Below are positions 17,922 through 41,745 of a DNA stretch of 64,000 bases, piece after piece. Below the pieces are notes generated by a model. The model saw only the letters and a program-made list of their open reading frames with translations. It ran no database searches and had not been told where the DNA came from. How positions within the stretch are numbered: position 1 is the stretch's first letter; each line of letters begins with the position of its first letter. A program made the position numbers and the translations under genes. Origin of the DNA: Candidatus Omnitrophota bacterium (GTDB lineage: Bacteria; Omnitrophota; Gorgyraeia; Gygaellales; Profunditerraquicolaceae); assembly GCA_028687205.1 (NCBI GenBank), contig JAQUAP010000001.1, positions 6,831 through 70,830 on the forward strand, written 5' to 3'.

Positions 17922-17991
17922 GGTGCAGATAACCGCGCCTTATAAGGCTGTGGCGCCCCTTAGAAGAGGATAAGCTAAAAGGGAGATAAAG

Positions 17992-18369: not shown

Positions 18370-18404
18370 ATCCAGGGCTATCCAAATTGATATATTGGAT
18401 TTAT

Positions 18405-18488
18405 GCGCGGGTGGTGGAATGGCAGACACGCAAGCATGAGGGGCTTGTGCCGAAAGGCTTGGGGGTTCAACTCCCCCCTCGCGCACCA
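18405..18488 (+). tRNA. tRNA-Leu (anticodon GAG), type II with long variable arm, CCA encoded
   Basis: Acceptor GCGCGGG/CTCGCGC; anticodon stem CAAGC/GCTTG with loop ATGAGGG; variable arm TGCCGAAAGGCTT; T-arm GGGGG-TTCAACT-CCCCC. Confidence 0.8.
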
Positions 18489-18497
18489 ATAGAAAAC

Positions 18498-19433: not shown

Positions 19434-19437
19434 ATAT

Positions 19438-20925: not shown

Positions 20926-20928
20926 TTT

Positions 20929-23517: not shown

Positions 23518-24417
23518 ATGCAGAAACAAAGGATTATCATCATTATCGGCATACTCTTAGCCGTGGCCGCGGTATTCATGACCAAGACCTATATTGACCA
23601 GCAGCGCCAGCAGGTTATCGAAGAGGCGAAGAAAAAAATAGCGAATATTGAGCAGAACCTGCCTAAGAATCAGGTTAAGGTATTGGTCGCCAATAAGGAT
23701 ATCCCTAAAGGCGCTATTCTTACGGCCGAAAACTTAAATACGAGCATCGTCCCGGAGCAATATCTCCAGCCGCAGGTAGTTTCTTCGGCAGAGAGGATTC
23801 TGGGAATGGTGGCGCTCCTGCCAATAGCCAAAGGCGAACAAATTACTTTAAGTAAATTGGTCCAACCCAGGCAAACAGGCGGTTTAGCCGAAGGCACGCC
23901 GGTAGGCAAAAGAGCGATTACTATTTCAGTAGATAGCCTGGCCGGATTAGGGGGGATGATTAAGCCAGGTGATTATGTGGATGTAATTGCCTTACTCCCG
24001 GTGCCGGTAACAACAGCCGAAGGTAAACAAGTAACCCAGGTAGCGGTTATGCCGCTCTTCCAGAATGTTTTGATTCTCGCCGTAGGCCAGGATACCGGCG
24101 CGGCATCAGGCAGCGCCGGGAAAAAAGCCCCGGAAGGAGAAAGAAGAAGCGAAAATTCTCCGTTGATCACCCTTGCCCTCAGCCCGCAGGAAGCCAACCT
24201 TATCGCCTTTGTCCAGGAGCAGGGCAAGTTACGTTTGACTTTACGTTCGCCTGCGGACGCCCAGGTAGTGCAGCCGATTCAGGCGGCGAGCTGGGATACC
24301 TTATTCAGGCATATATTGCCTCAACAACAGGAAGCCCGGCCTGAAACTCAGGATGCAACCGGTTTTGTAGAAATATACCGGGGCTTAAATAAAGAAAAAG
24401 TCCCCTTAGCTAAATAA
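23518..24417 (+). CDS. cpaB: Flp pilus assembly protein CpaB/RcpC
   Basis: N-terminal TM helix; SAF/CpaB-like block SAERILGMVALLPIAKGEQITLSKL; the locus continues with a secretin and a TadA-type ATPase. Confidence 0.8.
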   Translation: MQKQRIIIIIGILLAVAAVFMTKTYIDQQRQQVIEEAKKKIANIEQNLPKNQVKVLVANKDIPKGAILTAENLNTSIVPEQYLQPQVVSSAERILGMVALLPIAKGEQITLSKLVQPRQTGGLAEGTPVGKRAITISVDSLAGLGGMIKPGDYVDVIALLPVPVTTAEGKQVTQVAVMPLFQNVLILAVGQDTGAASGSAGKKAPEGERRSENSPLITLALSPQEANLIAFVQEQGKLRLTLRSPADAQVVQPIQAASWDTLFRHILPQQQEARPETQDATGFVEIYRGLNKEKVPLAK

Positions 24418-26058: not shown

Positions 26059-28218
26059 ATGTCTAGGAAAATAGTCATATTCAGCACGAAGGGCGGAGTA
26101 GGCAAGACCTTGATTGCCACTAACCTCGCCTGTTCCCTGGCTAAAGAGCAGGGGCAAAAGGTCTGCCTGGTGGATTTAGACCTGCAGGCAGTCGGCGATA
26201 TGGCCCGCATGTTAGACCTTAAGGTGGACAGGAGCATGGTTGAGCTCATCCAGAATTTTAAGAAACAAGCGTCGGAATTCAAGAAAAGCGATTTTTTAAT
26301 CCATAGCTATATGGGCCTTGACCTTTTATGCGGAGTAATCCGGCCTCAACAGGCGCCGCACCTTAAGCCCGAAAATATTAAGGAGATATTTAGCCTGTTG
26401 GATAAAGATTACGATTATATGATTGTAGACGCCGGAAGGAGTTTTAGCGACCTGCTCCTGGCGACCTTAAATCAGGCAAACCTGATCATCCTGGTGGTTA
26501 CTCCCGATATACTTTCCATATACCAGGCGGAGTGGGCAATAGACACCCTGCAATCTTTGCAAATTCCTTTATCCATGATTAAGGTAATTTTAAACCGCGC
26601 CGAGTCTATCTCCAGTATCAGCCTACAGGAGATAAAAGTTAACCTGCTTTGCGGTATCCTCAACCAGATACCTTCGGAGGGCAGGGTTGTCGGCTTGGCC
26701 GTAAACCGCGGTATCCCGGTAGTCATCGACAGCCCGCGCTCGCGCTTTAGCCTGGCGATAAATAAACTGAGCGAGCAGTTAGTCAAGGATAAGGATTTAT
26801 TTACGGAGAACCGGGAGATAGACCAGTTGCGCCTGCAACAGGTGGCCTTAGAGAAGCCGGCAAAATTATGGGAAGAGGAAGGGCTGACCGAGCCGGTAAT
26901 CGAAGAGCTGACCGCCAAGGAAGAAATGGCGGACGATATCATCATCCTGAAAAGGAAGATCCATACCCGGCTGATCGATGAGTTGAATATTAAAAGGCTG
27001 GATTTAAAGGTTTTCAGCGACAGTAAAAAATCAAAGACCTTGCGCAGCAAGGCAGAGGTAATGGTAAGTAATTTTTTGGTTGAAGAAGCCGGGACCTTTA
27101 TTTCTTCCCCTGAAGTGCGCAAGAAACTGGTCAAGGAAATTTTAGATGAGGCCTTAGGCCTGGGGCCCTTGGATGACCTTTTAGCTACGCCCGATATCAC
27201 CGATATTATGGTCAATAATAAAGATGAGATATACATTGAAAAAAAAGGCAAAATAGAGCTGACCAGCAAAAAATTTATCTCCAATGAGCAGGTCAAGACA
27301 ATCATTGAAAGGATTATCGCGCCTATCGGTAAGAGGGTCGACGAATCTGTCCCGATGGTAGATGCGCGCCTTGCCGACGGCTCGCGCGTGAATGCCATTA
27401 TCCCGCCTTTAGCCCTGACCGGTCCCTCGTTAACTATAAGGAAATTCAGGAAAGAGAAATTTAAAATCGAGGATCTGATCCAGCTAAAGGCCCTAAACCA
27501 GAATATGGCTGATTTTATCAGCGCCTGCGTTATCTGCAGAAAAAATATCATTGTCTCCGGCGGTACCGGAAGCGGTAAGACCACGGCCTTAAATGTCCTT
27601 TCCGGATTTATCCCGGAAAACGAACGGATTATTACCATTGAAGATGCGGCAGAATTAAAGCTCGACCAGCAGCACTGGATAAGGCTGGAATCCCGGTCGC
27701 CTAATATTGAAGGCAGGGGAGCGGTAACCATAAGGGACCTTTTCCGCAATACCTTGAGAATGCGCCCGGACCGCATAATCATCGGCGAGTGCCGCGGTAT
27801 TGAAGCATTAGATATGCTCCAGGCGATGAATACCGGCCATGATGGCTCAATGACCACTATCCACGCTAATTCCACGCAGGATGTTTTAAGCCGCCTGGAT
27901 TCGATGATTCTCATGGGAGGAGTAGAGCTGCCGATCAGGGCCATCCGCGAGATGATTGCCTCGGCAATAGATTTAATTATCCACACTGCCAGGCTATCCG
28001 ATGGCTCGCGTAAGATTGTCCAGGTAACAGAGGTAAGCGGGATGAAGGATGAGCTGCATATCAACCTGCAGGATATCTTTATTTTTAAACAAACCGGCAT
28101 TGATGCCCAGGGTAGTGTACTGGGTGATTTCCAGGCTACCGGCCACATACCTTCCGCAATTGAAGAAATCAGGATAAAAGGCCTAAAGCTCTCCGATAGT
28201 ATATTTAAAGCTCCCTAA
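26059..28218 (+). CDS. cpaEF: Fused CpaE-like (MinD/ParA-family) and CpaF/TadA-like secretion ATPase
   Basis: N-terminal deviant Walker A IVIFSTKGGVGKT; C-terminal TadA/VirB11-type P-loop SGGTGSGKTT plus Asp and His boxes; 719 aa. Confidence 0.85.
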   Translation: MSRKIVIFSTKGGVGKTLIATNLACSLAKEQGQKVCLVDLDLQAVGDMARMLDLKVDRSMVELIQNFKKQASEFKKSDFLIHSYMGLDLLCGVIRPQQAPHLKPENIKEIFSLLDKDYDYMIVDAGRSFSDLLLATLNQANLIILVVTPDILSIYQAEWAIDTLQSLQIPLSMIKVILNRAESISSISLQEIKVNLLCGILNQIPSEGRVVGLAVNRGIPVVIDSPRSRFSLAINKLSEQLVKDKDLFTENREIDQLRLQQVALEKPAKLWEEEGLTEPVIEELTAKEEMADDIIILKRKIHTRLIDELNIKRLDLKVFSDSKKSKTLRSKAEVMVSNFLVEEAGTFISSPEVRKKLVKEILDEALGLGPLDDLLATPDITDIMVNNKDEIYIEKKGKIELTSKKFISNEQVKTIIERIIAPIGKRVDESVPMVDARLADGSRVNAIIPPLALTGPSLTIRKFRKEKFKIEDLIQLKALNQNMADFISACVICRKNIIVSGGTGSGKTTALNVLSGFIPENERIITIEDAAELKLDQQHWIRLESRSPNIEGRGAVTIRDLFRNTLRMRPDRIIIGECRGIEALDMLQAMNTGHDGSMTTIHANSTQDVLSRLDSMILMGGVELPIRAIREMIASAIDLIIHTARLSDGSRKIVQVTEVSGMKDELHINLQDIFIFKQTGIDAQGSVLGDFQATGHIPSAIEEIRIKGLKLSDSIFKAP

Positions 28219-28221
28219 TCA

Positions 28222-28566
28222 ATGAAGATAATTAACCAGACGCGCAATACCATATTGGCGCAGGATACCTTTGTCGCGGATACTTTTTTGAAAAGAATAA
28301 AAGGCCTCCTGGGTAAAAAGGAATTTAGGCCTGGCCAGGCCATTATCTTAAACCCCTCTAACTCCATCCATACCTGTTTTATGCGTTTCCCCATAGATAT
28401 ATTGTTTGTAGATAAAAATAACCGGGTTTTACAAGCAGTGGCTAATCTTAGGCCTTTCAGGTTCAGCCCACTCTCTTTTAAGAGCCGCCTGATTATTGAA
28501 TTACCTGCCGGCACAATCTGCTCTACTTCTACCAGCCAGGGCGACCAGCTTATTTTAGAAGCATAA
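28222..28566 (+). CDS. DUF192 (COG1430) family protein
   Basis: 114 aa; the GLLGKKEF...FMRFPIDILFVDKNNRV pattern is typical of DUF192. Confidence 0.65.
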   Translation: MKIINQTRNTILAQDTFVADTFLKRIKGLLGKKEFRPGQAIILNPSNSIHTCFMRFPIDILFVDKNNRVLQAVANLRPFRFSPLSFKSRLIIELPAGTICSTSTSQGDQLILEA

Positions 28567-28627: not shown

Positions 28628-28661
28628 CTATGTGCGGAGAAATGTCCAAACTGGAGTAGCT

Positions 28662-30839
28662 ATGGGTGTAATCTATAAATTAAAACCAGAAGTAAAAGAT
28701 TTCATCTTGCGGCAAAAGAGCGACAACCCCCACCTAAGCTGCCGTAAACTAACCGCCTTAGTTTTAGATAATTTTAAGATCGAGTTATCCAAATCCAGCA
28801 TTAATATGATTATCAAAGAAGCCGGCCTAAGCGCGCCTATAGGCAGGACCCCTAAAAAGAAAAGGCATCATATAGCTATGCCGCAATTGCCCGTATTGTT
28901 AGAAGATACGTCTGCCAAGGAAGCAGAAGCAGCTGCCAGGCAAGCTGAAAAAGAAAAATGGCAAAAATTAGCCGAAGAAGAAAGAAGGCGGCAGGAAGAA
29001 ATTAAAGAAGCCGAAGCAGAAAAACGCGCCAAGGAAGAAGCGGAAAAACGCGCCAAGGAAGAAGCGGAAAAAGCGCGTAAGGCAGAACAAGAAAAAAAGC
29101 GGCTTGAAGAAGAAGCTAAAAAAGCCGAAGAGGCGCAGCTGGCTGAGGAGGCCAAGAAAAAAGCTGAAGAAGAACGTCTCGCCCGGGAAGCTAAGCAAAA
29201 AGCCGAGGAAGAGAAACTTAAGGTCGCAGCAGAGAAACGCGCTAAGGAAGAAGCAGAAAAAGAAACCCTGCGTAAGCAAGAAGAGGAGAAATTAGCTAAA
29301 GAGGCCGCGGAAAAAGCGCGGCTTGAGCAGGAAGAAGCAGAGCGAAAAGCTAAGGAAGCCGCGGAAAAACTAAGGCTGGAAAAACTGGCGCAGGAAGAAA
29401 AAGCGCGTCAGGCCGAAGAGGCGCAGCTGGCTGAGGAGGCCAAGAAAAAAGCTGAAGAAGAGGCAGCTAAAAAAGCCGAGGAAGCAAAGAAAGCTGAAGA
29501 AGAGAAAGAGGCGTCTTTAGAGCCGGCAGGGGCAAAAGCCGCGGTTGCATTTGACGTCAGTACGTTCCCCCAGTTAGAAAATAGCGGGATTATCTTGCTT
29601 AAGGCAGCAGATTCTATTATCGGCGCAAGCTCACGCATTGCCGCGGCAGTTAAAAGCAGGTTATCCAGGACAGAGGGTAATTTTAACGCGGTGATAGAAA
29701 ACCTTATTTACCTGCCCTTACTCAAGGAAAAAATAGAAAAGCCTGTCTTGGATAAATTGTCCGCCTGTTTAAATGAAATAGAAAGTATCAAGGTGATGAA
29801 CCTGGATATTTTGCGTATTATCACTTTAAGCCTGCAGGAGGTGCGCTGTATCAGGATCATCCTCTCCGACGGAGAAAACCTCTACCTGGACGGGCAGATG
29901 TACTCGGTCTGGTCTAGCCCGCATATCCCCTATGATTTTGTCTCTCCCATCCATAATTTAAAAAAATATATCAAAAAATATTTTACCGAAGGCCAGCCGC
30001 TGGTGCTTTTTAACGCCCCGGGTTATGATATGCCTTCGCCGGAATTTTTTAGTTTTCTTGGCGCCTTTGAAGCGCAAGCAAGCAGCATCAGTAACATGAT
30101 TCTTTACGGCAATAAATTTAATGAACTGGAAGTCATCCCCATGTCCCCGGCTAAAAAACGCTTCTTTATCTTCGGGGTCTGGCCCTGGCAGTTTACCGAA
30201 TGCCGTAAAGTTAAGAACATAGGGCAATTCCGGCGCCTGCGCCTGGAAGCCCAGAACAGCGATTTTTATATCGCGGATATAGAGATGGCTTTGAGCCATC
30301 CGCGCCTGGGTAAACAGGTCAGCCTTAACGGGTGCGCGTTAAAGACAAGCCTGAATGAAAAAACGCGCCTGGTCATATTAAGTAACATTGCTCCCGGCGA
30401 TAAAAGCTCCGAGCAATTAGCCCTCACCTACCTTAGCCATTGGCCCAACCTGGACGAGGCTTTTCAGGACTATAGCCATAAAATTGAGCTCTTTACTTAC
30501 GCTGCCAATTCCCAGCGTTTCTTCTCCGCCGAAAAATTAAACCCGCAACTCGACCATGTTTTAAGCGTTGAGGAATTATTAAAGAACTATTTATTAGCTT
30601 TAGATGCCTATGTGCGCTGGTATTTATTGCCAGCCGGATATACGGATAAGGAGCTTACGCTGGTAAGAGAGCGCTTTTATAACCTGGATATCCGGCTAAC
30701 CAGGGATAATGAAACCTGTTTAGCCGGTTTTGTTGTTCCGCCGGGTTATTCTTTCGGCAAGGATTTAGGGTATCTTTGCCGCCGGCTCAACGAAAAAGAG
30801 GTTGCTTTCTCCGACGGGCTAAAATTATATTTTAAATAG
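28662..30839 (+). CDS. Hypothetical protein: N-terminal helix-turn-helix, long Lys/Glu/Ala-rich coiled coil, C-terminal globular domain
   Basis: Start taken at MGVIYKLKPEV (the ORF from 28632 would overlap the -10); HTH-like LSCRKLTALVLDNFKIELSKSSINMIIKEAGLS; about 230 aa of EEAKKKAEEE-type repeats. Confidence 0.5.
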   Translation: MGVIYKLKPEVKDFILRQKSDNPHLSCRKLTALVLDNFKIELSKSSINMIIKEAGLSAPIGRTPKKKRHHIAMPQLPVLLEDTSAKEAEAAARQAEKEKWQKLAEEERRRQEEIKEAEAEKRAKEEAEKRAKEEAEKARKAEQEKKRLEEEAKKAEEAQLAEEAKKKAEEERLAREAKQKAEEEKLKVAAEKRAKEEAEKETLRKQEEEKLAKEAAEKARLEQEEAERKAKEAAEKLRLEKLAQEEKARQAEEAQLAEEAKKKAEEEAAKKAEEAKKAEEEKEASLEPAGAKAAVAFDVSTFPQLENSGIILLKAADSIIGASSRIAAAVKSRLSRTEGNFNAVIENLIYLPLLKEKIEKPVLDKLSACLNEIESIKVMNLDILRIITLSLQEVRCIRIILSDGENLYLDGQMYSVWSSPHIPYDFVSPIHNLKKYIKKYFTEGQPLVLFNAPGYDMPSPEFFSFLGAFEAQASSISNMILYGNKFNELEVIPMSPAKKRFFIFGVWPWQFTECRKVKNIGQFRRLRLEAQNSDFYIADIEMALSHPRLGKQVSLNGCALKTSLNEKTRLVILSNIAPGDKSSEQLALTYLSHWPNLDEAFQDYSHKIELFTYAANSQRFFSAEKLNPQLDHVLSVEELLKNYLLALDAYVRWYLLPAGYTDKELTLVRERFYNLDIRLTRDNETCLAGFVVPPGYSFGKDLGYLCRRLNEKEVAFSDGLKLYFK

Positions 30840-30881: not shown

Positions 30882-30910
30882 TTGACGCTTACCTATAAAG
30901 ATGTTATATT
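30882..30910 (+). promoter_or_regulatory. Sigma70-like promoter (TTGACG-N17-TATATT) for the pilin operon
   Basis: Hexamers with a 17-nt spacer, about 160 nt upstream of the first pilin gene. Confidence 0.5.
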
Positions 30911-31028
30911 TAAATGGAAAAATAGAATACAGGTTGAGGGGCGGCAAGGCGGAGGTAAATCCTGGTATGGAGGTATCGGGACGGGAATGTGCCACGGGCC
31001 AAAGCGAAAAAAGCTGTCCTGTAAGGTT

Positions 31029-31062
31029 ACCGAAGGCCCCTGGTTTTCGGTTTTTTATTTTT
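31029..31062 (+). terminator. Leader hairpin ACCGAA/TTCGGT followed by TTTTTTATTTTT (attenuator-like) immediately before the first pilin RBS
   Basis: 6-bp stem, 11-nt loop, 12-nt T-rich tract; lies inside a ~145-nt untranslated leader. Confidence 0.45.
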
Positions 31063-31073
31063 AGGAGTTAATG

Positions 31074-31253
31074 ATGTGTGACGCAAAACCTAAAGGCCAG
31101 GCATCCTTAGAATATTTTATCATATTCGCTATTATAGCTGTTTTGACGATCCTATCTTTCAGTACTTTTTTGCCTAAGGTCAAAGAGGCGATCCAGGGCT
31201 CAAGCGCAAAGACCGGCTTTTTTCAGAAGGCAGCGACGGCCATAACGCAGTGA
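31074..31253 (+). CDS. Flp/Tad-type pilin-like protein 1 (class III signal peptide)
   Basis: KGQASLEYFIIFAIIAVL: G/A-Q-x-x-L-E-Y motif followed by a hydrophobic helix; AGGAG RBS. Confidence 0.65.
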   Translation: MCDAKPKGQASLEYFIIFAIIAVLTILSFSTFLPKVKEAIQGSSAKTGFFQKAATAITQ

Positions 31254-31257
31254 GGGA

Positions 31258-31437
31258 ATGATGGAAAAAATTAAATATATACCGGCCAAAAATGGCGGAC
31301 AAAGCATTTTAGAGTACGCGTTGATTATTTCTGTGGTTGTGGCGGCGCTGGCGGCGATGAGTATCTATGTGCAGCGCTCAGCCCAGGCAAACCTGAAAGT
31401 TATTGAAGACCAGATCAATGCCCAACCGAACAATTAG
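31258..31437 (+). CDS. Flp/Tad-type pilin-like protein 2
   Basis: NGGQSILEYALIISVVVAALAAM; 59 aa, below the ORF-track length cutoff. Confidence 0.6.
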   Translation: MMEKIKYIPAKNGGQSILEYALIISVVVAALAAMSIYVQRSAQANLKVIEDQINAQPNN

Positions 31438-31447
31438 GAGGAGAAAG

Positions 31448-31630
31448 ATGTTAAAAAGAAAGAGGGCTCAGAGCACGCTGGAGTACATCGCGGTATTCGC
31501 GGCGATCGTCGGCGCGATCATTATCTTCGCTTACCTGAAACTCAAGCCCGCGGTAGAGAACGTGATGGATTCTTCGGCGACAAAAATAACCACGGCAACC
31601 AGCGATTTCACTGCGCAGTCGACCAAGTAG
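31448..31630 (+). CDS. Flp/Tad-type pilin-like protein 3
   Basis: MLKRKRAQSTLEYIAVFAAIVGAII; AGGAGGAG RBS. Confidence 0.65.
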   Translation: MLKRKRAQSTLEYIAVFAAIVGAIIIFAYLKLKPAVENVMDSSATKITTATSDFTAQSTK

Positions 31631-31652
31631 CGTCTTTTTAAGGAGGTGGAAG

Positions 31653-32033
31653 ATGTTGCGGATATTTAAGAACAGGAGAGCGCAGAGCACTATGGAATAC
31701 GCGCTTTTGATCGCGGTAGTCATCGGTGTATTCAGCGCTATGCAGATCTATATGCGCAGGTCCATGCAGGCCAAGGTCAAATCCGGTGCAGATAATATGT
31801 CTACGGTGGTATTGCAGGGCACAGAGGCAGGGGACAAGACCCAGGCCCTTTTCGGGACGGAGAAGCAGTATGAGCCTTACTATATCCGGGAAGGCCAGTA
31901 TCAGTTCAGCACCGAATCCACCGAAGGCAGGGAAGCAGGCGTGGTTACTGAAGCCGGCGGAAAGAAAGAAGTCACCGGAGCGACAGTCAGCCGTACCGGC
32001 ACCCAGCAGATCACCGGCGCTAAAGAGGAATAA
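31653..32033 (+). CDS. Flp/Tad-type pilin-like protein 4
   Basis: NRRAQSTMEYALLIAVVIGVF; AAGGAGG RBS. Confidence 0.65.
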   Translation: MLRIFKNRRAQSTMEYALLIAVVIGVFSAMQIYMRRSMQAKVKSGADNMSTVVLQGTEAGDKTQALFGTEKQYEPYYIREGQYQFSTESTEGREAGVVTEAGGKKEVTGATVSRTGTQQITGAKEE

Positions 32034-32060
32034 AACCTAAAGAAGCAGGAGGGGTGGATA

Positions 32061-32384
32061 ATGTTGAGAAATAAAAAAGGCCAGAACACCTTAGAGTATG
32101 CCTTGATTATCGCGGCAGTAATCGGTGCCTTAATAGCGATCAATGCCTATATGAAAAAAGGCGTGCAGGGGAAATTAAAGGAATCTACGGATCAGATCGG
32201 CAAGCAGTTTGATGCCGCGGGAAGCCATACCTCTGCCTGGAAAACAGAGGCGTCCGGCACTACCGTGACTACGGAAAGCCGCGATACGTCGACGGGTGCG
32301 ACGACCAGCAAGGTAGAGCAGGGCGAAAAGGTCACCAGGTCCGAAACTGAAGAATGGGGCACTGCGCCAGAGCAGCGGTATTAA
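32061..32384 (+). CDS. Flp/Tad-type pilin-like protein 5
   Basis: NKKGQNTLEYALIIAAVIGALIAI; Thr/Ser-rich tail. Confidence 0.65.
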   Translation: MLRNKKGQNTLEYALIIAAVIGALIAINAYMKKGVQGKLKESTDQIGKQFDAAGSHTSAWKTEASGTTVTTESRDTSTGATTSKVEQGEKVTRSETEEWGTAPEQRY

Positions 32385-32732
32385 ATGCGCGTATTTGCAT
32401 TAAGAGGGCAGAGTTTAACTGAGCTGGCCATATTATTGGTTGCGGTAGTGGGCATAATTTTGACCATGCGTATTTATCTGCAGCGCGCTATGCAGGCAAA
32501 ATACAAGGCCGGGCCGGATTACTTGGTTTCTGAGATCAAGAACGCCGCTGCCGAAAAAGGGGCAGCCGGTGTCAGCGGCATAAAGCAGCAGTATGATCCC
32601 TACTATCGGGAGTCGAGCGTTGCTGAAACAAGGAGCGGAAGTTCCAGCGTAGGTTTTCCTGAGACGTCAATTGAGCAAACCTCTACCCGCAGCGGCTGGG
32701 AAAAGACAAGGCCCGCTCAAGAGGCGGATTAG
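32385..32732 (+). CDS. Flp/Tad-type pilin-like protein 6
   Basis: ALRGQSLTELAILLVAVVGIILT. Confidence 0.6.
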   Translation: MRVFALRGQSLTELAILLVAVVGIILTMRIYLQRAMQAKYKAGPDYLVSEIKNAAAEKGAAGVSGIKQQYDPYYRESSVAETRSGSSSVGFPETSIEQTSTRSGWEKTRPAQEAD

Positions 32733-32734
32733 AG

Positions 32735-33052
32735 ATGAAGAGCAAAGCGCAAAGCATTATGGAATACGTAATAGTTTTAGGTTTAATCGCCCTGGCTTTA
32801 GCGGCGATGTCTTTATATTTTCGCAGGGGGATACAATCAGTAGTGAAGATTGCGGCAGATGAGATGGGCGACCAGAAAGATGCCGAAGATATTAATCCCA
32901 TTACCGGGACCAAGACCTCTTCGGCAATCAGGCGCCAGGCGCAGAGCACGCAGAAGTTAAGGGCATACGAGGGCGCCGCCCGGTCAAGCGAAGTCAGCTC
33001 AACCACGCTGACTACCGGGACAACGGCTTCGGTCTCAACACAGGAGAAATAA
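32735..33052 (+). CDS. Flp/Tad-type pilin-like protein 7
   Basis: KSKAQSIMEYVIVLGLIALALAAM. Confidence 0.65.
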   Translation: MKSKAQSIMEYVIVLGLIALALAAMSLYFRRGIQSVVKIAADEMGDQKDAEDINPITGTKTSSAIRRQAQSTQKLRAYEGAARSSEVSSTTLTTGTTASVSTQEK

Positions 33053-33053
33053 G

Positions 33054-33365
33054 ATGAGAAGGGCGCAAAGCAGCCTGGAATTTGCCATTGTTATTTTTGC
33101 CATTATCGCGGCATTATTGGCTATGCAGGTTTATATCAGGCGCGGGCTCCAGGGAAAGATGCGCTCCAGTGCGGATGAGTTAAGCCTGCAGCAATATGAT
33201 CCAGGAAAGATGTCTTCGGATATTACCACTACGCAGCAGAGCGATATAACTACTACCAGCGTAACTACCGAAGACGACGAGTGCTATACTACAACCACCG
33301 CTAACACTATTAATTTCCAGACCGAGAGCCGTTCAGGCACCGAAAGTATTGCGTCGGAGAAATAA
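33054..33365 (+). CDS. Flp/Tad-type pilin-like protein 8
   Basis: MRRAQSSLEFAIVIFAIIAALLAM. Confidence 0.65.
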   Translation: MRRAQSSLEFAIVIFAIIAALLAMQVYIRRGLQGKMRSSADELSLQQYDPGKMSSDITTTQQSDITTTSVTTEDDECYTTTTANTINFQTESRSGTESIASEK

Positions 33366-33366
33366 G

Positions 33367-34389
33367 ATGCGTAGGGCACAGGCATTATTGGAAGTAGCGA
33401 TTTTTGGGGCGATCATCGTGATGCTCTTGGGCGTCCTCATAAGCTACGGCATCAGGTATAATTCCCAACAGAAGCTGATGCAGCAGTCCTTCAGGAAGTC
33501 TTTAGCCGGTGCAGTAAGCGAACCGGGCAAGGCCATATCCAATGTATTATTGGGGGATACGCATATTCCCAATCCCGCGGATACCTTCGGCATAGGCTCG
33601 GTCACTCCTTTTACCGGCTCTGCCGGTTCCATTATCCGCGACTACCGTTTGAACGAGACCCCTGACCAGGATAGCGAGTTGCCCAGGATAAAAATGAGTA
33701 TCAATGGTAAAGAATTTACTTATAGGGTTGCCGGGTTCAGAGATGAATACAATGTCCCTGAAAGCAGCCTAGATAGGTACGACCAGATATACGGTTCGGG
33801 AAATGTCTGGAGCATCGGCGAAGGAGAATGTCTGGAGGAAGAGGAGACAACCGACCCGAATACCGGCCAGCCGGTTACGACCTGTAACCAGCCGTCAAAA
33901 AATATCCGCATTATCGATTCCTGCGCCGGGGAGGTCTTTGATTACGGCACTGCGGTAAAACAGTGCCGTATGATCGTGGACTCGGCTGCCTGCGTCAAAG
34001 AATGCAGCCGGGCCAACGACTCCACGGATTGTAACAGCGTCTGCAGCCACTCTATGAATATCCCCTGGTATTGCGCCAATTATACGGAAACGGATACCGT
34101 AAATCATGCCTACAATTTTCCTGTTTTAAACCAGCTTTTTAGCGCAACGAGCTTAAAGGCGCTTGGCTTACAACAGAATTACCAGCAGCGCATAACCGCC
34201 GACAGTTCCTTAAGGAGAACAGAAGATACTTCGGGCATTGCGACGACGGATAATGTTAACTGGGAGACTGAAATTACCAGGAAGATTATTACTCAACCTT
34301 ACGGCTCAACCAGCGGTGCTACGACTACCGAGGAGGTTACCAGTGCAGTTTCGCAGAATAAAGTGGAGTCCCGGAAGACCGGCTGGTAA
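33367..34389 (+). CDS. Large pilin-like protein 9 with Cys-rich C-terminal domain (minor pilin or tip candidate)
   Basis: MRRAQALLEVAIFGAIIVMLL prepilin-like N-terminus; 8 or more Cys in the CNQPS...CANY region. Confidence 0.55.
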   Translation: MRRAQALLEVAIFGAIIVMLLGVLISYGIRYNSQQKLMQQSFRKSLAGAVSEPGKAISNVLLGDTHIPNPADTFGIGSVTPFTGSAGSIIRDYRLNETPDQDSELPRIKMSINGKEFTYRVAGFRDEYNVPESSLDRYDQIYGSGNVWSIGEGECLEEEETTDPNTGQPVTTCNQPSKNIRIIDSCAGEVFDYGTAVKQCRMIVDSAACVKECSRANDSTDCNSVCSHSMNIPWYCANYTETDTVNHAYNFPVLNQLFSATSLKALGLQQNYQQRITADSSLRRTEDTSGIATTDNVNWETEITRKIITQPYGSTSGATTTEEVTSAVSQNKVESRKTGW

Positions 34390-34609
34390 AAGGGCTCAAG
34401 TTTCTTTAGAGCTGGCAGCCGGCATCGTCGTAGTTTTTATCCTGCTATTCGGTACATTACAGGTTTTTTTATGGATGAATAAGCGCCTGGTACAGAGGCA
34501 GAAAGATTACGAGGCTAAACGGGTGGAAGCGGGGAATAGTCCGGTAGAAGTTCAAATAGATGAGTCTGACCAAAGCAAATACCCGAAGCTGAATATTTTC
34601 GCCAAATAA
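34343..34609 (+). CDS. TadE-like pseudopilin 10 (GTG start inferred; overlaps the end of protein 9)
   Basis: KRAQVSLELAAGIVVVFILLF matches the TadE N-terminal motif; GGAGG 6 nt before the GTG at 34343; no ATG is available. Confidence 0.45.
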   Translation: MQFRRIKWSPGRPAGKRAQVSLELAAGIVVVFILLFGTLQVFLWMNKRLVQRQKDYEAKRVEAGNSPVEVQIDESDQSKYPKLNIFAK

Positions 34610-34655
34610 AAGGGGACGGTTCTATGCTAACGGCCATACGAATAGAACCGTCCCC
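34609..34655 (+). repeat. Palindromic REP-like element A (GGGGACGGTTCTAT-N16-ATAGAACCGTCCCC)
   Basis: Inverted arms at 34612..34625 and 34642..34655, immediately after the pseudopilin-10 stop. Confidence 0.7.
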
Positions 34656-34674
34656 GGGATAGCCGGGAGAGGCG

Positions 34675-36741
34675 ATGTTAGGGAATTTTTATCAGAAATT
34701 TTCTCTGGATAACCTGAAAAAAGACAGGCCTTTAGGCCAGGTGGCGACCATCCTTATCTTAATGGTCGTGGTCATCCTGATCATGATCCTGACCACGGTA
34801 AATTTAGGCCAGCTCTCTCTTTATACCACTACTCTTTCCAATATCGCGGATTCTTCAGCCATGTATTTAGCTTCACAGTTAGCCACCCGTTCCCATGCTC
34901 TATATCAGGCATTAGGAAATTCTACCTGTAAATGCAAAAGCGGTGGCTTTGGCGGGCTCTTTGGGGCAATAATCGGAGCAATTATCGTTATTGTAGTAAC
35001 CGTAGTTACTTATGGAGCAGGCACTGCTCCCACAATGGCCGCAGTTATGGCTAATACAGGCTTAATGGTAGCCGCAGGAGTTGTGGGCGGCGCCATAGGC
35101 GGAGCGATAGGTAGTAGCTATTCCGGAACAGGTATTCTGGCAGGAACTATCCAGGGGGCGATGATAGGAGGTGCGATTGGCTATGGAGTTAGTGCCGGCG
35201 CAGGAATGGGGGCCGATGTAGGTGGTTCAAGTTTAAGCCTTGAAGAAACAGAAGCTCTCCTGGCCATGCAGCAAAGCGGCGTTCAAACTGAGGCTGGAAT
35301 TGCTGCTGCTAGTAAAATAGCTACTGCTTCGGCAGTTGGTGCTGGAGCAGGAGGCACCTTAGCGGTGGGGGCAGCTAGCTACAATGCCTATGTGGCTGAC
35401 CAAAACCAGGCAGCTGCTTTTGCCGCTGCCTCCAGGATGCTGAACGGCTTGCCTGAATATGACCGCTACCGCGAGAGCATATTTTTACAGGTCTTTTCCC
35501 AGGCCGTGGATGACCCGAATAAGGATAAGGATACCGATGACTTAAACGGTAACGGCATAGTTGACGAGAAAATCCCACATTTTCTCCATTATTGGAGCGG
35601 CAGGATGGGCTACCTAAAAAGCGTTATCCCCAGCCTCCAGAGTATTACCAATACTTTTTTTAACGGAACCCTGGAGGACTTTCGAAAGTATATGCAGGTC
35701 CAAATTCTTGGCGAGAGTACAGGCTCTTCTGATCCGGAAACAGGTTCGTCTACCTATAAACCCGGGATACTTTCTAAGGCGGGAGCAGGTACAAACGTTA
35801 CTGCCAACGGTTCGGTAGCTGAAGTCGCCGAGGCCTTGAATCCTATGTTCTGGAACCCGCAAAGCAACGGCTCTTTTGACAGCATCGTCAGCGGCTTTAA
35901 CAGCTTTATCTCCGACGTAAAATCGCTGCAGGAGATAGGCCTTAGCCGCCTGACCAGCCAGTGGCAGACCTACATCAAGAATTTTTATAATAAAGATGCC
36001 GGAAAGACGGCCGAGGATGGCTCAACCATTACGGATTATTATACGATGTTGGGGGAGGTAAAAGGTTATTTAAATGACTGGAAGACGCAGATTGCGCAGA
36101 AGAGGAACGCCCTTCCTGCCTGTAAAATGGGTGGGTGGGAGATGATTGATTACGCTACCTTTTGCCAACCCTGTGGTTTCAGCACTTTTTGCCCTAACAG
36201 CTGTATTATTGATTCCGGCCCAGAGATGAGCCCGATGCCTTGCAAATTTAATTTTACCCTTAAAGGCGGCACCCTGGATTATAACGTAGATGATGAGATT
36301 ACCGCCAGCCTGAACGATATCGATACTTTGATCAATAAGATTAGTAATTTCCAAGACGCGATTAAGCAGTATGTCAATGATATGGAAAATACCTACGCTG
36401 CGCTTGAAAGCGGTTACGGCGGACTGAACCCGGCGATTTACAGTTGGGCCGACAGCCGCGGAGACCACAGCGTAAGGGTCGCAGTAGGCAATTACCAGTT
36501 GGCCAGGACCATCACTACCTCTAGCGGAAGCTGGCTGAAGAAAGAGATCTGCGTACGCCTGGTGGATTACAGCGACGACGGCTCCAATTCCTGGGTGCAG
36601 ATAACCCGCCAGGACCCCAAGAACAAGGATGTAAAAACAGGAAAAGTAAGTTTAGGGATGTGGAATCCGTTTTTTAGTGGTACAATTACTAAGAAAGGCA
36701 GGGCCTATTATAGTTACGATAAAGTAGGCCTGACCCAGTAA
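34675..36741 (+). CDS. TadG-like pilus assembly protein 11 (large, Gly-rich, Cys-containing C-terminal region)
   Basis: N-terminal GQVATILILMVVVILIMILTTVNLGQLSLYTTTLSNIADSSAMYLASQLA matches the TadG/TadE N-terminal pattern; 688 aa. Confidence 0.6.
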   Translation: MLGNFYQKFSLDNLKKDRPLGQVATILILMVVVILIMILTTVNLGQLSLYTTTLSNIADSSAMYLASQLATRSHALYQALGNSTCKCKSGGFGGLFGAIIGAIIVIVVTVVTYGAGTAPTMAAVMANTGLMVAAGVVGGAIGGAIGSSYSGTGILAGTIQGAMIGGAIGYGVSAGAGMGADVGGSSLSLEETEALLAMQQSGVQTEAGIAAASKIATASAVGAGAGGTLAVGAASYNAYVADQNQAAAFAAASRMLNGLPEYDRYRESIFLQVFSQAVDDPNKDKDTDDLNGNGIVDEKIPHFLHYWSGRMGYLKSVIPSLQSITNTFFNGTLEDFRKYMQVQILGESTGSSDPETGSSTYKPGILSKAGAGTNVTANGSVAEVAEALNPMFWNPQSNGSFDSIVSGFNSFISDVKSLQEIGLSRLTSQWQTYIKNFYNKDAGKTAEDGSTITDYYTMLGEVKGYLNDWKTQIAQKRNALPACKMGGWEMIDYATFCQPCGFSTFCPNSCIIDSGPEMSPMPCKFNFTLKGGTLDYNVDDEITASLNDIDTLINKISNFQDAIKQYVNDMENTYAALESGYGGLNPAIYSWADSRGDHSVRVAVGNYQLARTITTSSGSWLKKEICVRLVDYSDDGSNSWVQITRQDPKNKDVKTGKVSLGMWNPFFSGTITKKGRAYYSYDKVGLTQ

Positions 36742-36742
36742 T

Positions 36743-37204
36743 ATGGAATTAAATAGTAAAGACAAAAAAAATAACCCCATCTTGGAGTATGCTATTCTGG
36801 CAGGGGTAGTTATTGTCTTTCTTATATTTATTTTCCAGATAAGGACAGGAGACGTTAATTTCTGCCGCGCTATCTTTAAAGATTTGGCCGGCGGACGTTA
36901 CGGCGTCCAGAAATATATTGACTGGGAACATTTCCAGGGTTTGGATATTGATGTCGCAGCAACCTATAACAGCTTTGCCACGCAAAAAGAAAAAACCGGC
37001 TATAAAAAGGCCTTTATCCAAAGCTTCTCCCGCGGGTTTAAGAATGCGGGAGGCAGGTATAAGGCATTTGTCAATTGGCGCATTTATAGCAAGGCCGGCA
37101 ATCAGATAACTGTGGCTGCCGACTATCAAGGCCGTAACCAGACTTTATTATTTACCCTCCCAAGCGCAGGGAAAAAGAAATTAATTGCCCTGCAATGGCA
37201 ATAG
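36743..37204 (+). CDS. Pilin-like protein 12
   Basis: NNPILEYAILAGVVIVFLIFIF prepilin-like N-terminus. Confidence 0.55.
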   Translation: MELNSKDKKNNPILEYAILAGVVIVFLIFIFQIRTGDVNFCRAIFKDLAGGRYGVQKYIDWEHFQGLDIDVAATYNSFATQKEKTGYKKAFIQSFSRGFKNAGGRYKAFVNWRIYSKAGNQITVAADYQGRNQTLLFTLPSAGKKKLIALQWQ

Positions 37205-37213
37205 CTTAGTTTA

Positions 37214-37375
37214 ATGAGGAATAAAAAAGGTTTTTTATCCCTGGAATACGCGCTGCTCATTGCGGTATTGGTAGCGGCGCTGGTAGCCATGGGATTTTAT
37301 TTTAAGCGCTCCTTAAGCGGAAAATGGCGGGAGGCAGGGGACAGTTTTGGCTTTGGCCGGCAGTACAAACCTTAG
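37214..37375 (+). CDS. Flp/Tad-type pilin-like protein 13
   Basis: MRNKKGFLSLEYALLIAVLVAALVAM; 53 aa, below the ORF-track cutoff; the stop overlaps palindromic element B. Confidence 0.6.
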   Translation: MRNKKGFLSLEYALLIAVLVAALVAMGFYFKRSLSGKWREAGDSFGFGRQYKP

Positions 37376-37470: not shown

Positions 37471-38319
37471 ATGCAAATCTTAGTAATCCTGGGATTAATC
37501 GCTGCGTCCATAATTTTAATCGGTAGCCAACTCCTGCCTATATTCCTGCAACGGGCAAGCAATCTGCACACGCAAAAGGTAACGGAGGCGGAAAAACAAC
37601 TGGATAAGATGTTTATCCAGGTCAACCGCCAGAAGCTTATTTTATGGTATACGGTTACACCCCTTATTATGGGGCTGGCGGGTTTTTTCTTTTTCCGCAA
37701 TTTAGGCTTAGCCCTACTTACCGGCGCAGTCAGCTTTATCTTTCCTTCCCTGATCATTAAAAATTTAAAAGCTAAACGCCGCGCCCTCTTTCAAAACCAG
37801 CTTGCCGACGGGATCATGGTGCTTTCCTCGTCGCTAAAAGGCGGGCTTTCCTTGATGCAGGCGATGGAGGTGGTAGTGGAGGAGATGCCGGCTCCTTTTT
37901 CCCAGGAATTCGGCCTGGTCTTAAGAGAAAATAAAATCGGCGTGCCCTTAGAAGAGAGCCTGAAGCATTTACACGAGAGGCTGCATTTTGAAGAGCTGGA
38001 TTTAGTGATTAACTCTATGCTGGTTTCTAAAGAAACCGGCGGAGACCTAACTAAAGTTTTAGCGCGCCTCTCGGTTACGCTGCGGGATAACCGCAAATTA
38101 AAGGAAAGCATCAAGACCTTGACCCTCCAAGGTAGGCTCCAGGGGATCATTATGTCGGTATTACCCTTCTTTTTTGTCGCCTGGGTAGTAAGTTTTAACC
38201 GCAACCACTTTGATATCATGTTTAATTCAGAGACAGGCAGGGTACTTTTAATAATCGCGGTTTGCTTACAGGTAGTGGGGATATTTTTAATCCATAAATT
38301 CAGTAAGATAGACATATAG
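37471..38319 (+). CDS. tadB: Flp pilus assembly protein TadB (T2SS F-domain membrane protein)
   Basis: 282 aa with an N-terminal TM helix, cytoplasmic GspF-like domain and C-terminal TM helices, directly after the pilin genes. Confidence 0.75.
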   Translation: MQILVILGLIAASIILIGSQLLPIFLQRASNLHTQKVTEAEKQLDKMFIQVNRQKLILWYTVTPLIMGLAGFFFFRNLGLALLTGAVSFIFPSLIIKNLKAKRRALFQNQLADGIMVLSSSLKGGLSLMQAMEVVVEEMPAPFSQEFGLVLRENKIGVPLEESLKHLHERLHFEELDLVINSMLVSKETGGDLTKVLARLSVTLRDNRKLKESIKTLTLQGRLQGIIMSVLPFFFVAWVVSFNRNHFDIMFNSETGRVLLIIAVCLQVVGIFLIHKFSKIDI

Positions 38320-38388: not shown

Positions 38389-39250
38389 ATGCTTATATTA
38401 ATTTTTATATTTCTGGCATTGGCAATTATATTAATAGTAGTAGGCATAAGGAGTATCCCTCAGGTCACCGGAGCCAGGACGCCGATAGCCCCCATAAAAT
38501 CCAGAGTCTCCAGGTTCCATTTTCTAGCCGCGATTTTTTCCTTTCACCAAAGTTATCCTGGAGAAGCTCAATTTAGAGCTTAAAATTAAATCCCGCTTAG
38601 CCAGCGCGCATTTAAGGCTTACGCCCCAGGAGTTTTTTAACCTTAAGCTCCTGTTTATGATTGTTTTAATTATCCTCACTCCCATAGTATTAGGTAAGAT
38701 TGAGCCAGTGGGATTTATTGTCGCGCTTGCCGCCGGATACCTCCTGCCGGAGATTTGGCTCAACAGCCGGGTAGCTAAGCGTAAATACGCCATTATCCGG
38801 GTGCTCCCTGAAACCGTAGATTTATTAAGTTTATGCGTGGACGCCGGCCTGGATTTTGTCGCTTCCATTGAGTGGGTGATTAAAAAAGGCATCTCCACCA
38901 ACCCGATGATTGAAGAGCTGGCCTTTGTTTTAGAGGAGATCCAGTGGGGTAAACCCCGCAGCCAGGCCTTAAAAGATATGGCTAAGAGGCTGAATATCCC
39001 GGAGGTCAACTCTTTTATCCAGACCCTGGTCCAGGCTGAACGCATGGGCACTCCGGTTGCCGAGGCCTTTGGGGTTTTATCCGAAGACGCCCGTATGCAA
39101 CGCTTTAACCGCGGAGAGCGGTTCGCGATGAAGGCTCCGATTAAAATCCTTATCCCGCTCATCTTCTGTATCCTGCCGGTAATCGGCATCATTATCGGCG
39201 GCCCGATATTCCTGCAGTTTACCCAGGGCAAAATGCTCCAAGGCTTCTAA
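38389..39250 (+). pseudogene. tadC: Flp pilus assembly protein TadC, apparent single-base frame change near the T6 run at ~38534
   Basis: N-terminal 45 aa read in the frame of 38389 and the rest in the frame of 38657; the latter is open back to 38528 and encodes the typical TadC region ...LKIKSRLASAHLRLTPQEFFNLKLLFMIV. Confidence 0.6.
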
Positions 39251-39367: not shown

Positions 39368-40045
39368 ATGCCCAGGATAGGAAGAATAGTCCCTCTTGAT
39401 GCTACCTTACATGTCATCAGTAGGGGTAATAACCGCCGAGTTGTGTTTCATAGTGAAAGTGACAAATTGAGATATTATGCATTATTATTTAAATTGAAGC
39501 AAGAAAATAAGATAGATATTTTACACTATTGCTTGATGGCCAACCATGTCCATTTGGTCCTCCAGCTTAAACCGGAAAGCACCCTAGCTAAGTTTATGAA
39601 ACAGCTTAATTTAACGTATTCTCATTACTATAGGAAGCTATATGAATATGCCGGCTATCTCTGGCAAGGCAGATTCAAAAGCAATATAATTGAAATGGAC
39701 TCATATTTATTGCAATGCGGTAAATATATTGAACTTAATCCGGTTCGGGCGGGCATTATAGCTCATCCCGCACAATACCTTTTCTCAAGCTATAATTTCT
39801 ATGCGGAAGGCAAATCCGACTCACTTGTTACTCCGAGCCCGGTATACCTGGGTTTAGCTGGCTCACCTGCGCGAAGGCAGGAACAATATATTGATTTTGT
39901 AATTGACAGCAGTATAATAAACTCAGATTTACTCGCCTCTAAAATATATATAGGAAGCCAAGCTTTTATTAACCGCCTCCAAACTCAATATAAGATAGGG
40001 AATTACAGGGAGAAAAGGGGCAGGCCATTCAAAGCAGAACAATAA
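39368..40045 (+). mobile_element. IS200-like Y1 transposase of the REP-associated (RAYT/TnpA-REP) type
   Basis: N-terminal HVISRGNNRRVVF; HuH motif ANHVHLVLQL; WQGRFKS and YLLQCGKYIELNPVRAGI (catalytic Tyr region); flanked by palindromic elements D and E. Confidence 0.7.
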
Positions 40046-41590: not shown

Positions 41591-41615
41591 TTGGATGTAA
41601 TTGAGACAAGTAACG

Positions 41616-41745
41616 AAATGGCAAACCCGGAGAAATCCGGGGGCGCAAAGCCGCGGGTCCTAAAATAATTCAAGTAAATAGCTTCAAAGGATAGCCGGGC
41701 TGCCGAATTACCGACGGAAATTTGACAGTTCGGCTCTTTCTTTTT
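41616..41745 (+). ncRNA. Putative c-di-GMP-I (GEMM) riboswitch with terminator-like expression platform
   Basis: GGCAAACC at 41620..41627; hairpin CCCGGA-GAAA-TCCGGG (GNRA loop) at 41626..41641; GGCGCAAAGCC at 41642..41652; 3' UUACCGACGG at 41708..41717 (compare Vc2 UUACCGAUGG); hairpin GCCGAA/TTCGGC plus TCTTTCTTTTT at 41702..41745. Confidence 0.6.

Follow-up and report, generated by a model that had tools for sequence, protein, structure and literature searches.

A conserved array of thirteen pilin-like genes, very probably the pilin module of a Tad-type locus, in Candidatus Omnitrophota

Introduction

The closest described systems to the locus reported here are the Tad (type IVc) pili of bacteria and the Epd pili found in Methanococcus maripaludis, an archaeon, and Tad has been inferred to share ancestry with Epd (PMC6668835). 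In M. maripaludis, all substrates of the peptidase EppA carry Gln at position +1, and replacement of this Gln by Ala abolishes processing (PMC3875500, PMC4390842). In the predatory Kil Tad pilus of Myxococcus, minor pilins of the TadE/F/G type form tip complexes, and the system has 15 pilins in total (PMC12075869). Omnitrophota are widespread, uncultured and ultra-small bacteria which are thought to be predators or parasites. Tad is present in this phylum and was found to be expressed in V. archaeovorus, and at least one Omnitrophota species preys on archaea (PMC10066038). Many small genes with class III signals in the locus are already mentioned by West-Roberts et al. 2023 (bioRxiv 10.1101/2023.11.21.568195). 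In the present study, 64,000 nucleotides from a Candidatus Omnitrophota bacterium (GenBank assembly GCA_028687205.1, contig JAQUAP010000001.1, positions 6,831 to 70,830 of the forward strand; hereafter the window) were analysed, and the subject is an array of 13 pilin-like open reading frames (ORFs), g1 to g13, which lies within a Tad-type locus of this window.

Results

Layout of the array and coding evidence

The 13 ORFs were found to be tightly packed on the + strand, from the start of g1 at 31071 to the end of g13 at 37375, and they are very probably the pilin module of a Tad-type pilus conserved across Candidatus Omnitrophota. The same coordinates and the same 13 consecutive ORFs had been given by the first-pass annotation of the window and proved exact, all on the + strand. 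For comparison, 191 relatives of the TadZ-CpaF fusion ATPase of the window were identified among GTDB species genomes and 80 loci were kept (numbered with the prefix L); nearly all of them are labelled as Omnitrophota/Omnitrophica or as 'uncultured Planctomycetales/Planctomycetia'.

The array begins with short pilins (a slash marks the predicted cleavage site). The Flp-like g1 (31071..31253, 60 aa) carries KPKG/QASLEY with a mature length of 51 aa, and the Flp-like g2 (31258..31437, 59 aa) carries KNGG/QSILEY with a mature length of 45 aa; g2 is the most widely kept short pilin, with matches in 54 of the related loci. For g3 (31448..31630, 60 aa, KRKRA/QSTLEY), which has an AGGAGG Shine-Dalgarno site, the start ATG 31448 was chosen over TTG 31403. 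The mid-size pilins follow: g4 (31653..32033, 126 aa, NRRA/QSTMEY), a member of family A with the invariant QYEPYY motif; g5 (32061..32384, 107 aa, NKKG/QNTLEY), in the B position after g4; g6 (32385..32732, 115 aa, ALRG/QSLTEL), of family A with QQYDPYY; g7 (32735..33052, 105 aa, MKSKA/QSIMEY); and g8 (33054..33365, 103 aa, MRRA/QSSLEF), of family B. The large pilin g9 (33367..34389, 340 aa, MRRA/QALLEV, nine Cys) has its refined start at ATG 33367 and is overlapped by 47 nt by g10 (34343..34609, 88 aa, GKRA/QVSLEL), a TadE-like pseudopilin with a GTG start behind a GAGGAGG Shine-Dalgarno site. The TadG-like g11 (34675..36741, 688 aa, RPLG/QVATIL) encodes a large pilin-like protein without Glu at +5, and g12 (36743..37204, 153 aa) has a pilin-like hydrophobic helix in the context KKNN-PILEY without G/A at −1. 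The array closes with the short Flp-like pilin g13 (37214..37375, 53 aa, NKKG/FLSLEY), which has Phe at +1. The range of types proposed in the first pass, from Flp-sized pilins through TadE-like and TadG-like members to a 340-aa Cys-rich pilin, is therefore supported.

The intergenic gaps were 0-27 nt throughout, with the exception of 65 nt before g11, and strong Shine-Dalgarno sites were found at g3, g4, g5 and g10. Promoter or terminator signals above background were absent within the array, and the 13-gene block looks like one operon. The 60-, 340- and 88-aa products of g3, g9 and g10 were reproduced by an independent gene call on a sequence-identical Logan contig. Further, the ratio of nonsynonymous to synonymous substitution rates (dN/dS) was calculated against the orthologues of L001, whose ATPase is 92% identical to that of the window. 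It was 0.04-0.17 for the 12 measurable genes of the array, including the 59-60-aa g1, g2 and g3 (0.06, 0.08 and 0.10) and g12 (0.09), in comparison to 0.05-0.07 for TadZ-CpaF, TadB and TadC. For g13, dS was saturated and 8 nonsynonymous differences were counted against 26 synonymous ones. These values and counts indicate that the small ORFs are protein-coding genes, and the purifying selection seen in all 13 answers the concern, raised in the first pass, that the small ORFs might be untranslated.

Signal motif and cleavage site

Each of g1-g10 has a basic leader of 4-18 residues, after which come G/A (−1), Gln (+1) and Glu (+5), and then a stretch of 15 or more uncharged residues. The leader, the G at −1, Glu+5 and the hydrophobic helix are shared by g13, but its +1 residue is Phe; the full motif with Gln+1 is present in 10 of the 13 genes, and a G/A site with Glu+5 in 11 of them. 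The first-pass annotation had assigned one shared G/A-Q...E motif to all thirteen, which is correct for g1-g10 and has to be given up for g11 (no Glu+5), g12 (no G/A) and g13 (Phe+1). When leader, −1 site, helix and Glu+5 were taken together as the class III prepilin criteria, 11 of the 13 proteins showed all of them, g11 showed all but Glu+5, and g12 fell outside the class due to the lack of a G/A/S site. Class III-type cleavage sites are thus present in twelve proteins (g1-g11 and g13). In the orthologues of g12, position −1 is taken by N or D. Cleavage of g12 is improbable, and the protein is probably an uncleaved, membrane-anchored component. The Flp motif G/xxxxEY in the setting of a Tad locus was found for g1, g2, g3 and g13, with mature lengths of 45-54 aa, E at +5 and Y at +6. 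Phe at +1 is typical of type IVa pilins; in the last short pilin it belongs to this lineage (it is also present in L001, L004 and L013), and most Omnitrophota orthologues have Gln there.

The pattern [GA]-Q-x-x-[LMIVT]-E-[YFLV] gave 13 matches in the six-frame translation of the 64-kb window, against 0.9 +/- 0.8 in block shuffles; ten of these fall in the array, one in each of g1-g10, and the other three lie inside the giant ORF described below. The combination of motif, hydrophobic helix and clustering is far above chance. At E<=1, a profile hidden Markov model of the 36-residue N-termini matched nothing else on the two strands of the window, apart from g12, which gave a weak match (E 0.59). 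In the motif-positive genes of the related loci, residue −1 was G in 234, A in 132 and S in 7, position +5 was E in 360/374 and position +6 was Y in 308/374. Gln was found at +1 in 361/374 (97%), a count which is somewhat biased because the search profile was trained on Q.

The Gln at +1 had been considered unusual in the first pass. This holds in comparison to proteobacterial Flp and not as a general rule, and Gln+1 is not unprecedented, as seen in the EppA substrates of M. maripaludis. By analogy, the near-invariant Gln suggests a peptidase with an EppA-like Gln requirement. The N-terminus of the major pilin of Methanococcus is pyroglutamate, and pyroglutamate could stand in for N-methylation, a step beyond TadV-type peptidases.

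Conservation and gene order across the phylum

Of the 80 loci, 54 hold 1-14 motif-positive genes, always on the strand of the ATPase gene. The 24 loci that span the whole distance from the ATPase gene to tadB have 5-14 of them (median 7.5); the window has 11, in addition to g11 and g12. The order of the genes was also found to be conserved. It starts with one to four short Flp-like pilins (mature length 45-60 aa), followed by A-B pairs of ~100-aa pilins and then by more ~100-aa pilins, a 200-380-aa pilin (QA[I/L]LEL), a TadE-like pseudopilin (QATLEF) and the TadG-like protein, after which come g12, the final short pilin and tadB-tadC. Family A has Q[S/T/N]TAEY at the cleavage site and QY[D/E]P in all 49 members, and family B (76 members) has QSTLEY. 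For 41 of the 49 A genes, a B gene comes next; the loci have one to three such pairs, and in seven loci the pair occurs two or three times. Neither of the two ~100-aa families has a model in Pfam or NCBIfam. In L021, L022, L028 and L065, tadB-tadC was observed in the middle of the array, after the first group of short, A and B genes.

Positional orthologues are retained down to an ATPase identity of ~60%, and the paralogues within the window share 22-49% identity, mostly in the helix. On the basis of conserved order, positional orthologues and diverged paralogues, the array is an old module at the level of the phylum, and it is seen in Omnitrophota species by the dozen. The idea of a recent tandem amplification was also considered and is ruled out by the low identity of the paralogues and by the phylum-wide positional orthologues. 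A Tad locus usually has 4-6 pilin-like genes. The 'marked expansion' noted in the first pass holds with respect to this usual count, but it is not peculiar to the genome in question, as the array is a conserved Omnitrophota module.

Protein families and structural models

Comparison with the curated families placed the proteins near the known signal and pilin models but under their thresholds. For PF04021 (Class_IIIsignal; gathering threshold 23.7) the scores were 22.2 bits for g5, 19.9 for g13, 19.5 for g1, 15.2 for g4 and 14.2 for g3. For Flp_Fap (PF04964, gathering threshold 32.2) the best score in the window was 20.6 bits (g5), and g1 reached 14.3. TIGR04205 matched g13 with E 6e-6, and g12 had no Pfam match. 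Among 75 short relatives, 22 matched PF04021 (best E 4e-6) and 7 matched Flp_Fap, both counted at E<0.01. PDB sequence searches with g2 and with a short-pilin profile returned sub-significant matches only (archaeal flagellin, Flp, Caulobacter PilA and geopilin, E 0.03-1).

Among the larger members, g10 scored 14.3 bits against TadE (PF07811, E 0.047) and did not reach the cutoff of 22.9; we infer that it works like TadE from its size and its position directly before the TadG-like gene. The score of g11 against PF13400 was 21.7 bits (cutoff 22.3), and this domain is found in most g11 orthologues in precomputed annotation, with the NCBI names 'Tad domain-containing' or 'TadG-related'. The NCBI record identical to the g11 product is itself named 'Tad domain-containing protein', and the records identical to the g9 and g4 products, likewise from a 'Candidatus Omnitrophica bacterium' MAG, are named 'hypothetical protein'. 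None of the 43 homologues of g9 has a Pfam domain, and those with a named source are nearly all from Omnitrophota. A profile of the g4 family matched 2,485 cluster representatives (at 50% identity) at E<=1e-3, and all source-named members were from Omnitrophota.

Structure prediction of the larger members, as proposed in the first pass, gave a confident AlphaFold2 model for g9 (mean predicted local distance difference test score, pLDDT, 85.9), in which an N-terminal helix of residues 2-51 is followed by a beta-rich domain. The predicted fold has a pilin architecture, and the model had no fold match in the PDB at E<0.06. A near-invariant twin CX3C motif (C209, C213, C222 and C226) lies in two adjacent short helices of the model, and this arrangement suggests a disulfide-stapled helical hairpin. 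In the model of g4, a helix of residues 2-53 was found together with a low-confidence beta hairpin.

Tad machinery around the array

The genes on both sides of the array supply the Tad machinery. Upstream on the + strand are a PpiC/SurA-like peptidyl-prolyl isomerase (22613-23515, by Pfam), RcpC/CpaB (23518-24417, Pfam 3e-25), a secretin with a C-terminal TonB_C domain (24418-26055, Pfam Secretin 2e-40) and a 719-aa fusion of TadZ (ParA/MinD) with CpaF (T2SSE) at 26059-28218, in which Pfam identified AAA_31/ParA and T2SSE (4e-62). This single-protein fusion is kept across the phylum. It is followed by a DUF192 gene (PF02643 by Pfam, 28222-28566, +), which was found directly 3' of the TadZ-CpaF gene in 76/80 loci; the only PDB relative of DUF192 is the uncharacterised 3m7a, and a literature search for a link between DUF192 and pili gave no relevant result. 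The last gene before the array encodes a 735-aa coiled-coil protein (28632-30839, +) without a Pfam match, which has an HTH-like N-terminus, a Glu/Lys/Ala-rich coiled coil of ~250 residues and a C-terminal domain, also without a Pfam match, and was present in 70/80 loci. The upstream order PpiC-RcpC-secretin-TadZ/CpaF-DUF192-coiled-coil is kept in 67-80 of the 80 loci.

Downstream of the array, TadB (37471-38319, +) and TadC (38389-39250, +) each have one T2SSF domain (8e-20 and 9e-17). The tadC gene is split by a +1 frameshift, due to one extra T in a run of six at ~38533-38538 where L001 has five, and the TadC of L001 and other relatives is intact with ~290 aa. The frameshift may be an assembly error, or it may be genuine and possibly phase-variable. 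With tadZ, tadA/cpaF, tadB, tadC, rcpC/cpaB and an rcpA-type secretin co-located, the gene content identifies a Tad (type IVc) locus, and the locus encodes a complete Tad-type machine apart from the peptidase.

The first-pass annotation had seen no prepilin peptidase (TadV/CpaA) in the window, and this was borne out by the Pfam, regular-expression and phmmer searches. The Pfam search for A24 peptidases covered the window ORFs of at least 100 aa outside the giant frame, excluding antisense overlaps of larger genes, together with four minus-strand ORFs inside that frame. Regular expressions of the G.GD.K type and phmmer, the latter with a Pseudomonas aeruginosa PilD sequence as the query, were applied to all six-frame segments of the window and the 80 loci. 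The lone candidate from the regular expressions, in L022, was an antisense, non-membrane-like segment and was rejected. No EppA homologue was seen, and the supplements of Seymour et al. have no tadV, prepilin or Flp entries. The result points to an unlinked peptidase, possibly one specific for Gln+1.

Leader of the array and riboswitch-like elements

The array is preceded by a leader region (30882..31070, +) with a promoter-like TTGACG-17-TATATT (30882-30910) and a leader of ~120 nt, in which a terminator-like hairpin at 31029-31051 with a T-run is followed by an AGGAG Shine-Dalgarno site. A conserved ~180-nt element was found in at least 25 of the related loci, 5' of the first pilin gene only; the loci with this leader include L006, L007, L009, L013, L014, L017-L019, L021, L022, L024, L028, L031, L039, L059 and L064. 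Its 5' part consists of CGGCAGCGAAAAGGCAA, a hairpin with 2-9 double-sided compensatory changes per pair, and GCGCAAAGCCACGGGA, and its 3' part of a large variable insert, AGCCGGGTTACCGAAAGCCG and a terminator, the 5' arm of which overlaps the aptamer 3' strand in the leaders of the relatives. The exact GCGCAAAGCCACGGG core is present in at least 15 loci.

Rfam searches, RF01051 and RF03167 included, gave no match to the window leader at E<=1 and nothing at the gathering threshold in six related loci; the L039 leader scored 16.1 bits against c-di-GMP-I (cyclic di-GMP, c-di-GMP), where the gathering score is 35. On the other hand, a profile of 16 leaders of the relatives matched, over its full length, the certified RF03167 element of the window (E 1.4e-6). 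This element is a c-di-GMP-I-GGC riboswitch at 41611-41708 (+; 67.5 bits, E 8e-14), ~170 nt before the ATG of the giant gene, and no riboswitch is mentioned in the searched passages of the two preprints on Omnitrophota giant genes that were consulted. The leaders of the relatives may be read as divergent ON switches of the GEMM-I type, and the arrangement of aptamer and terminator predicts c-di-GMP-induced expression in many of the relatives. The leaders of the window, L001 and L004 are collinear with them, but the GCGCAAAGCC core is replaced, and in the window leader only the 3' part (30993-31061, E 0.006) matches the profile of the relatives. Due to these two features, ligand control of the window copy is uncertain.

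Neighbouring genes

Immediately upstream of the Tad locus, at 16260-22140, are genes for signalling proteins: two histidine kinases, one with a PAS and one with a GAF domain, a stand-alone receiver, a FIST-domain protein and a receiver-GGDEF protein at 18498-19433 (-). This cluster is a possible c-di-GMP input to the Tad locus. Downstream, an IS200-like Y1 transposase gene (PF01797, 1e-18) was observed at 39368-40045 (+) between tadC and an OprB porin gene, and homologues of this transposase recur near the locus in L008, L025, L058 and L072. A giant open frame starts 2.6 kb after tadC (41869-63999+, +; first ATG 41878) and runs past the end of the window with at least 7,377 codons. It encodes an N-terminal transmembrane (TM) segment, with a Peptidase_C39 domain at residues 194-271 and, near residue 7,230, a GGDEF domain, and is of the 'Archaeovorin'-like type known from Omnitrophota. 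A class III signal on the giant protein was also considered and was rejected, as the N-terminal TM segment is present but no G/A-Q...E motif was found.

Discussion

Our study has highlighted an array which is unusually large and almost wholly unannotated, and the reading of it as the pilin module of a Tad-type pilus conserved across Candidatus Omnitrophota is considered highly probable. A mechanism can be proposed by analogy with the Tad and archaeal Epd paradigms. The prepilins g1-g11 and g13 would insert into the inner membrane, and a class III (A24 aspartic) peptidase encoded elsewhere would cut after the G/A at −1. The cleavage would expose Gln+1 (Phe+1 in g13) and leave Glu+5 in all the substrates except g11. 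At least one of the small or mid-size pilins may then be polymerised by the TadZ-CpaF ATPase and the TadB/TadC platform, with the RcpA-type secretin as the passage. In the manner of the TadE/F/G-type minor pilins of the Kil pilus (PMC12075869), g9, g10, g11 and perhaps g12, as an uncleaved anchor, may form a priming or tip complex which gives the pilus its binding properties. The role of the pilus is likely to be attachment to prey or host cells, together with the downstream giant surface protein; this is based on the Omnitrophota literature (PMC10066038; bioRxiv 10.1101/2023.11.21.568195) and on the adjoining giant adhesin-like gene.

Some of the observations weigh against this reading. No pilin of the window scores above the cutoff of the curated Pfam models, and NCBIfam names none of the ten proteins tested (small, mid-size and g12). 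The model of g4 has a pLDDT of 58, with low confidence past the helix, and the major subunit is not discernible from sequence. An A24 prepilin peptidase was found neither in the window nor within +/-10 kb of the ATPase gene in the 80 related loci, and due to this the processing of the prepilins is something that we infer. Moreover, the frameshift in tadC is present in this assembly and, should it be real, the machine encoded by this copy would be defective.

Among the other explanations, it is possible but doubtful that the pilins are interchangeable as major subunits or tips, with a subset in use at any one time, either to suit different prey or surfaces or to bring about antigenic variation. 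The numbers of A-B pairs (one to three) and of short pilins (one to four) do vary between species, in Haloferax any one of six PilA paralogues can be used to build pili, and Myxococcus has four alternative tip complexes with differing prey efficiencies (PMC12075869). However, positional orthologues have been kept over deep divergence under strong purifying selection, and the genes form one tight operon free of internal promoter or terminator signals above background; the retention of orthologues and the single operon favour simultaneous, non-redundant roles. An exporter similar to the type II secretion system (T2SS), in which a short periplasmic pseudopilus pushes or displays the giant downstream protein, is rather unlikely. 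It draws on West-Roberts et al., where the locus is called 'T2SS-like' and conserved directly upstream of giant genes, on the closeness of the giant ORF to tadC and the TM segment and C39 peptidase domain near its N-terminus, and on the several pseudopilins which T2SS machines likewise use. Against it stands the Tad architecture itself, with split TadB/TadC of one T2SSF domain each, TadZ, RcpC, Flp-sized G/xxxxEY pilins and TadE/TadG-like proteins; the Pfam scans gave no match to the T2SS-specific families GspC, L and M, and export of a folded protein of >7,000 aa through a secretin is improbable.

The resemblance to archaeal pilins raises another alternative, namely the recent horizontal gain of an Epd-type, EppA-dependent pilin set onto a bacterial Tad machine, and this we regard as very improbable. 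The pilins do carry +1 Gln, +5 Glu and −1 Gly/Ala, as is characteristic of Epd, PF04021 is matched more often than Flp_Fap, TIGR04205 recognises g13, and archaea are the prey of at least one Omnitrophota species. But the array occurs throughout the phylum and its order is kept, which means that any archaeal transfer would have been ancient; its GC content of 0.48-0.51 is inside the range of the window; and the +6 Tyr of the Flp motif, present in most of the relatives' pilins, is absent from those of M. maripaludis (PMC3875500). An Epd-like ancestor has already been inferred for Tad as a whole (PMC6668835), and the features in common may therefore go back to it. Finally, the idea that the small ORFs are untranslated, or encode small membrane proteins of a general kind with no relation to pili, can practically be dismissed. 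Its support is that no protein passes a curated cutoff and that public records say 'hypothetical protein', whereas the low dN/dS values, the orthologues at the same positions in dozens of species, the Shine-Dalgarno sites, the agreement of the independent gene caller and the confinement of these genes to the Tad locus all speak against it. The specificity of the profile, the positional orthologues and the dN/dS values effectively refute it.

Within the preferred reading of a Tad-type pilin module, a more specific picture can be speculated, to which only a small probability is given. In this picture the Tad fibre would be a heteropolymer built from or sheathed by A and B pilins, controlled by a divergent c-di-GMP-I riboswitch and coupled to the downstream giant surface protein. 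If true, the type IVc filament would be heteropolymeric, with C-terminal extensions rich in beta structure, and not a simple Flp homopolymer.

The locus and its class-III-signal genes are already in the literature, and our results are hence a refinement rather than a discovery. New are the ordered 13-gene anatomy and the extent to which it is conserved, the residue counts at the cleavage site, the two mid-size families A and B with their paired occurrence, a member (g12) that is probably non-cleavable, the lack of a linked peptidase gene in the 80 loci and the riboswitch-like leader. Of the candidates for an attachment apparatus in Omnitrophota, the Tad locus beside the giant genes ranks first. 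A set of 'hypothetical proteins' can now be turned into a parts list of candidate major pilins, two mid-size families, a candidate tip set (the large Cys-rich pilin with the TadE- and TadG-like proteins) and one member which is probably non-cleavable, and family A, one of the new mid-size families, has thousands of cluster representatives in metagenomes. The motif and the profile can be used by annotation pipelines for genes which are now missed. Further, this bacterial motif joins the archaeal Epd signature (+1 Gln) to the Flp signature (+6 Tyr), which bears on the proposed archaeal origin of Tad.

Comparison with known systems

The locus is the same as the 'type II secretion-like' one upstream of the Omnitrophota giant genes in West-Roberts et al. 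2023 and the same as the Tad loci in Seymour et al. 2023; the pilin genes are not dissected in these papers. With the Flp/Tad loci (Aggregatibacter flp-tad, Caulobacter cpa and Myxococcus Kil) it shares RcpC, the secretin, TadZ, CpaF/TadA, TadB and TadC, as well as the Flp-sized G/xxxxEY pilins, the TadE-/TadG-like pseudopilins and a peptidase gene that may be unlinked. It differs from them in the +1 residue, which is almost always Gln, in the two extra ~100-aa families arranged as A-B pairs, in the TadZ-CpaF fusion, the TonB_C secretin and the giant downstream gene, and in having DUF192 and the long coiled-coil protein as fixed members. In Omnitrophota the pilin-like genes form a single tandem array; in Myxococcus they are distributed over four tip gene clusters and the major-pilin gene.

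The likeness to the Epd pili of M. maripaludis (PF04021/DUF361) is in the −1 Gly, +1 Gln and +5 Glu, the leaders of 4-21 aa, the presence of ~50-60-aa pilins along with larger ones, the number of about a dozen genes per genome and the split TadB/TadC-like platform. On the other hand, the Omnitrophota locus belongs to a diderm bacterial host, with a secretin and RcpC, and its pilins have Tyr at +6; moreover, its pilin genes are clustered in one place, whereas the Epd genes are scattered.

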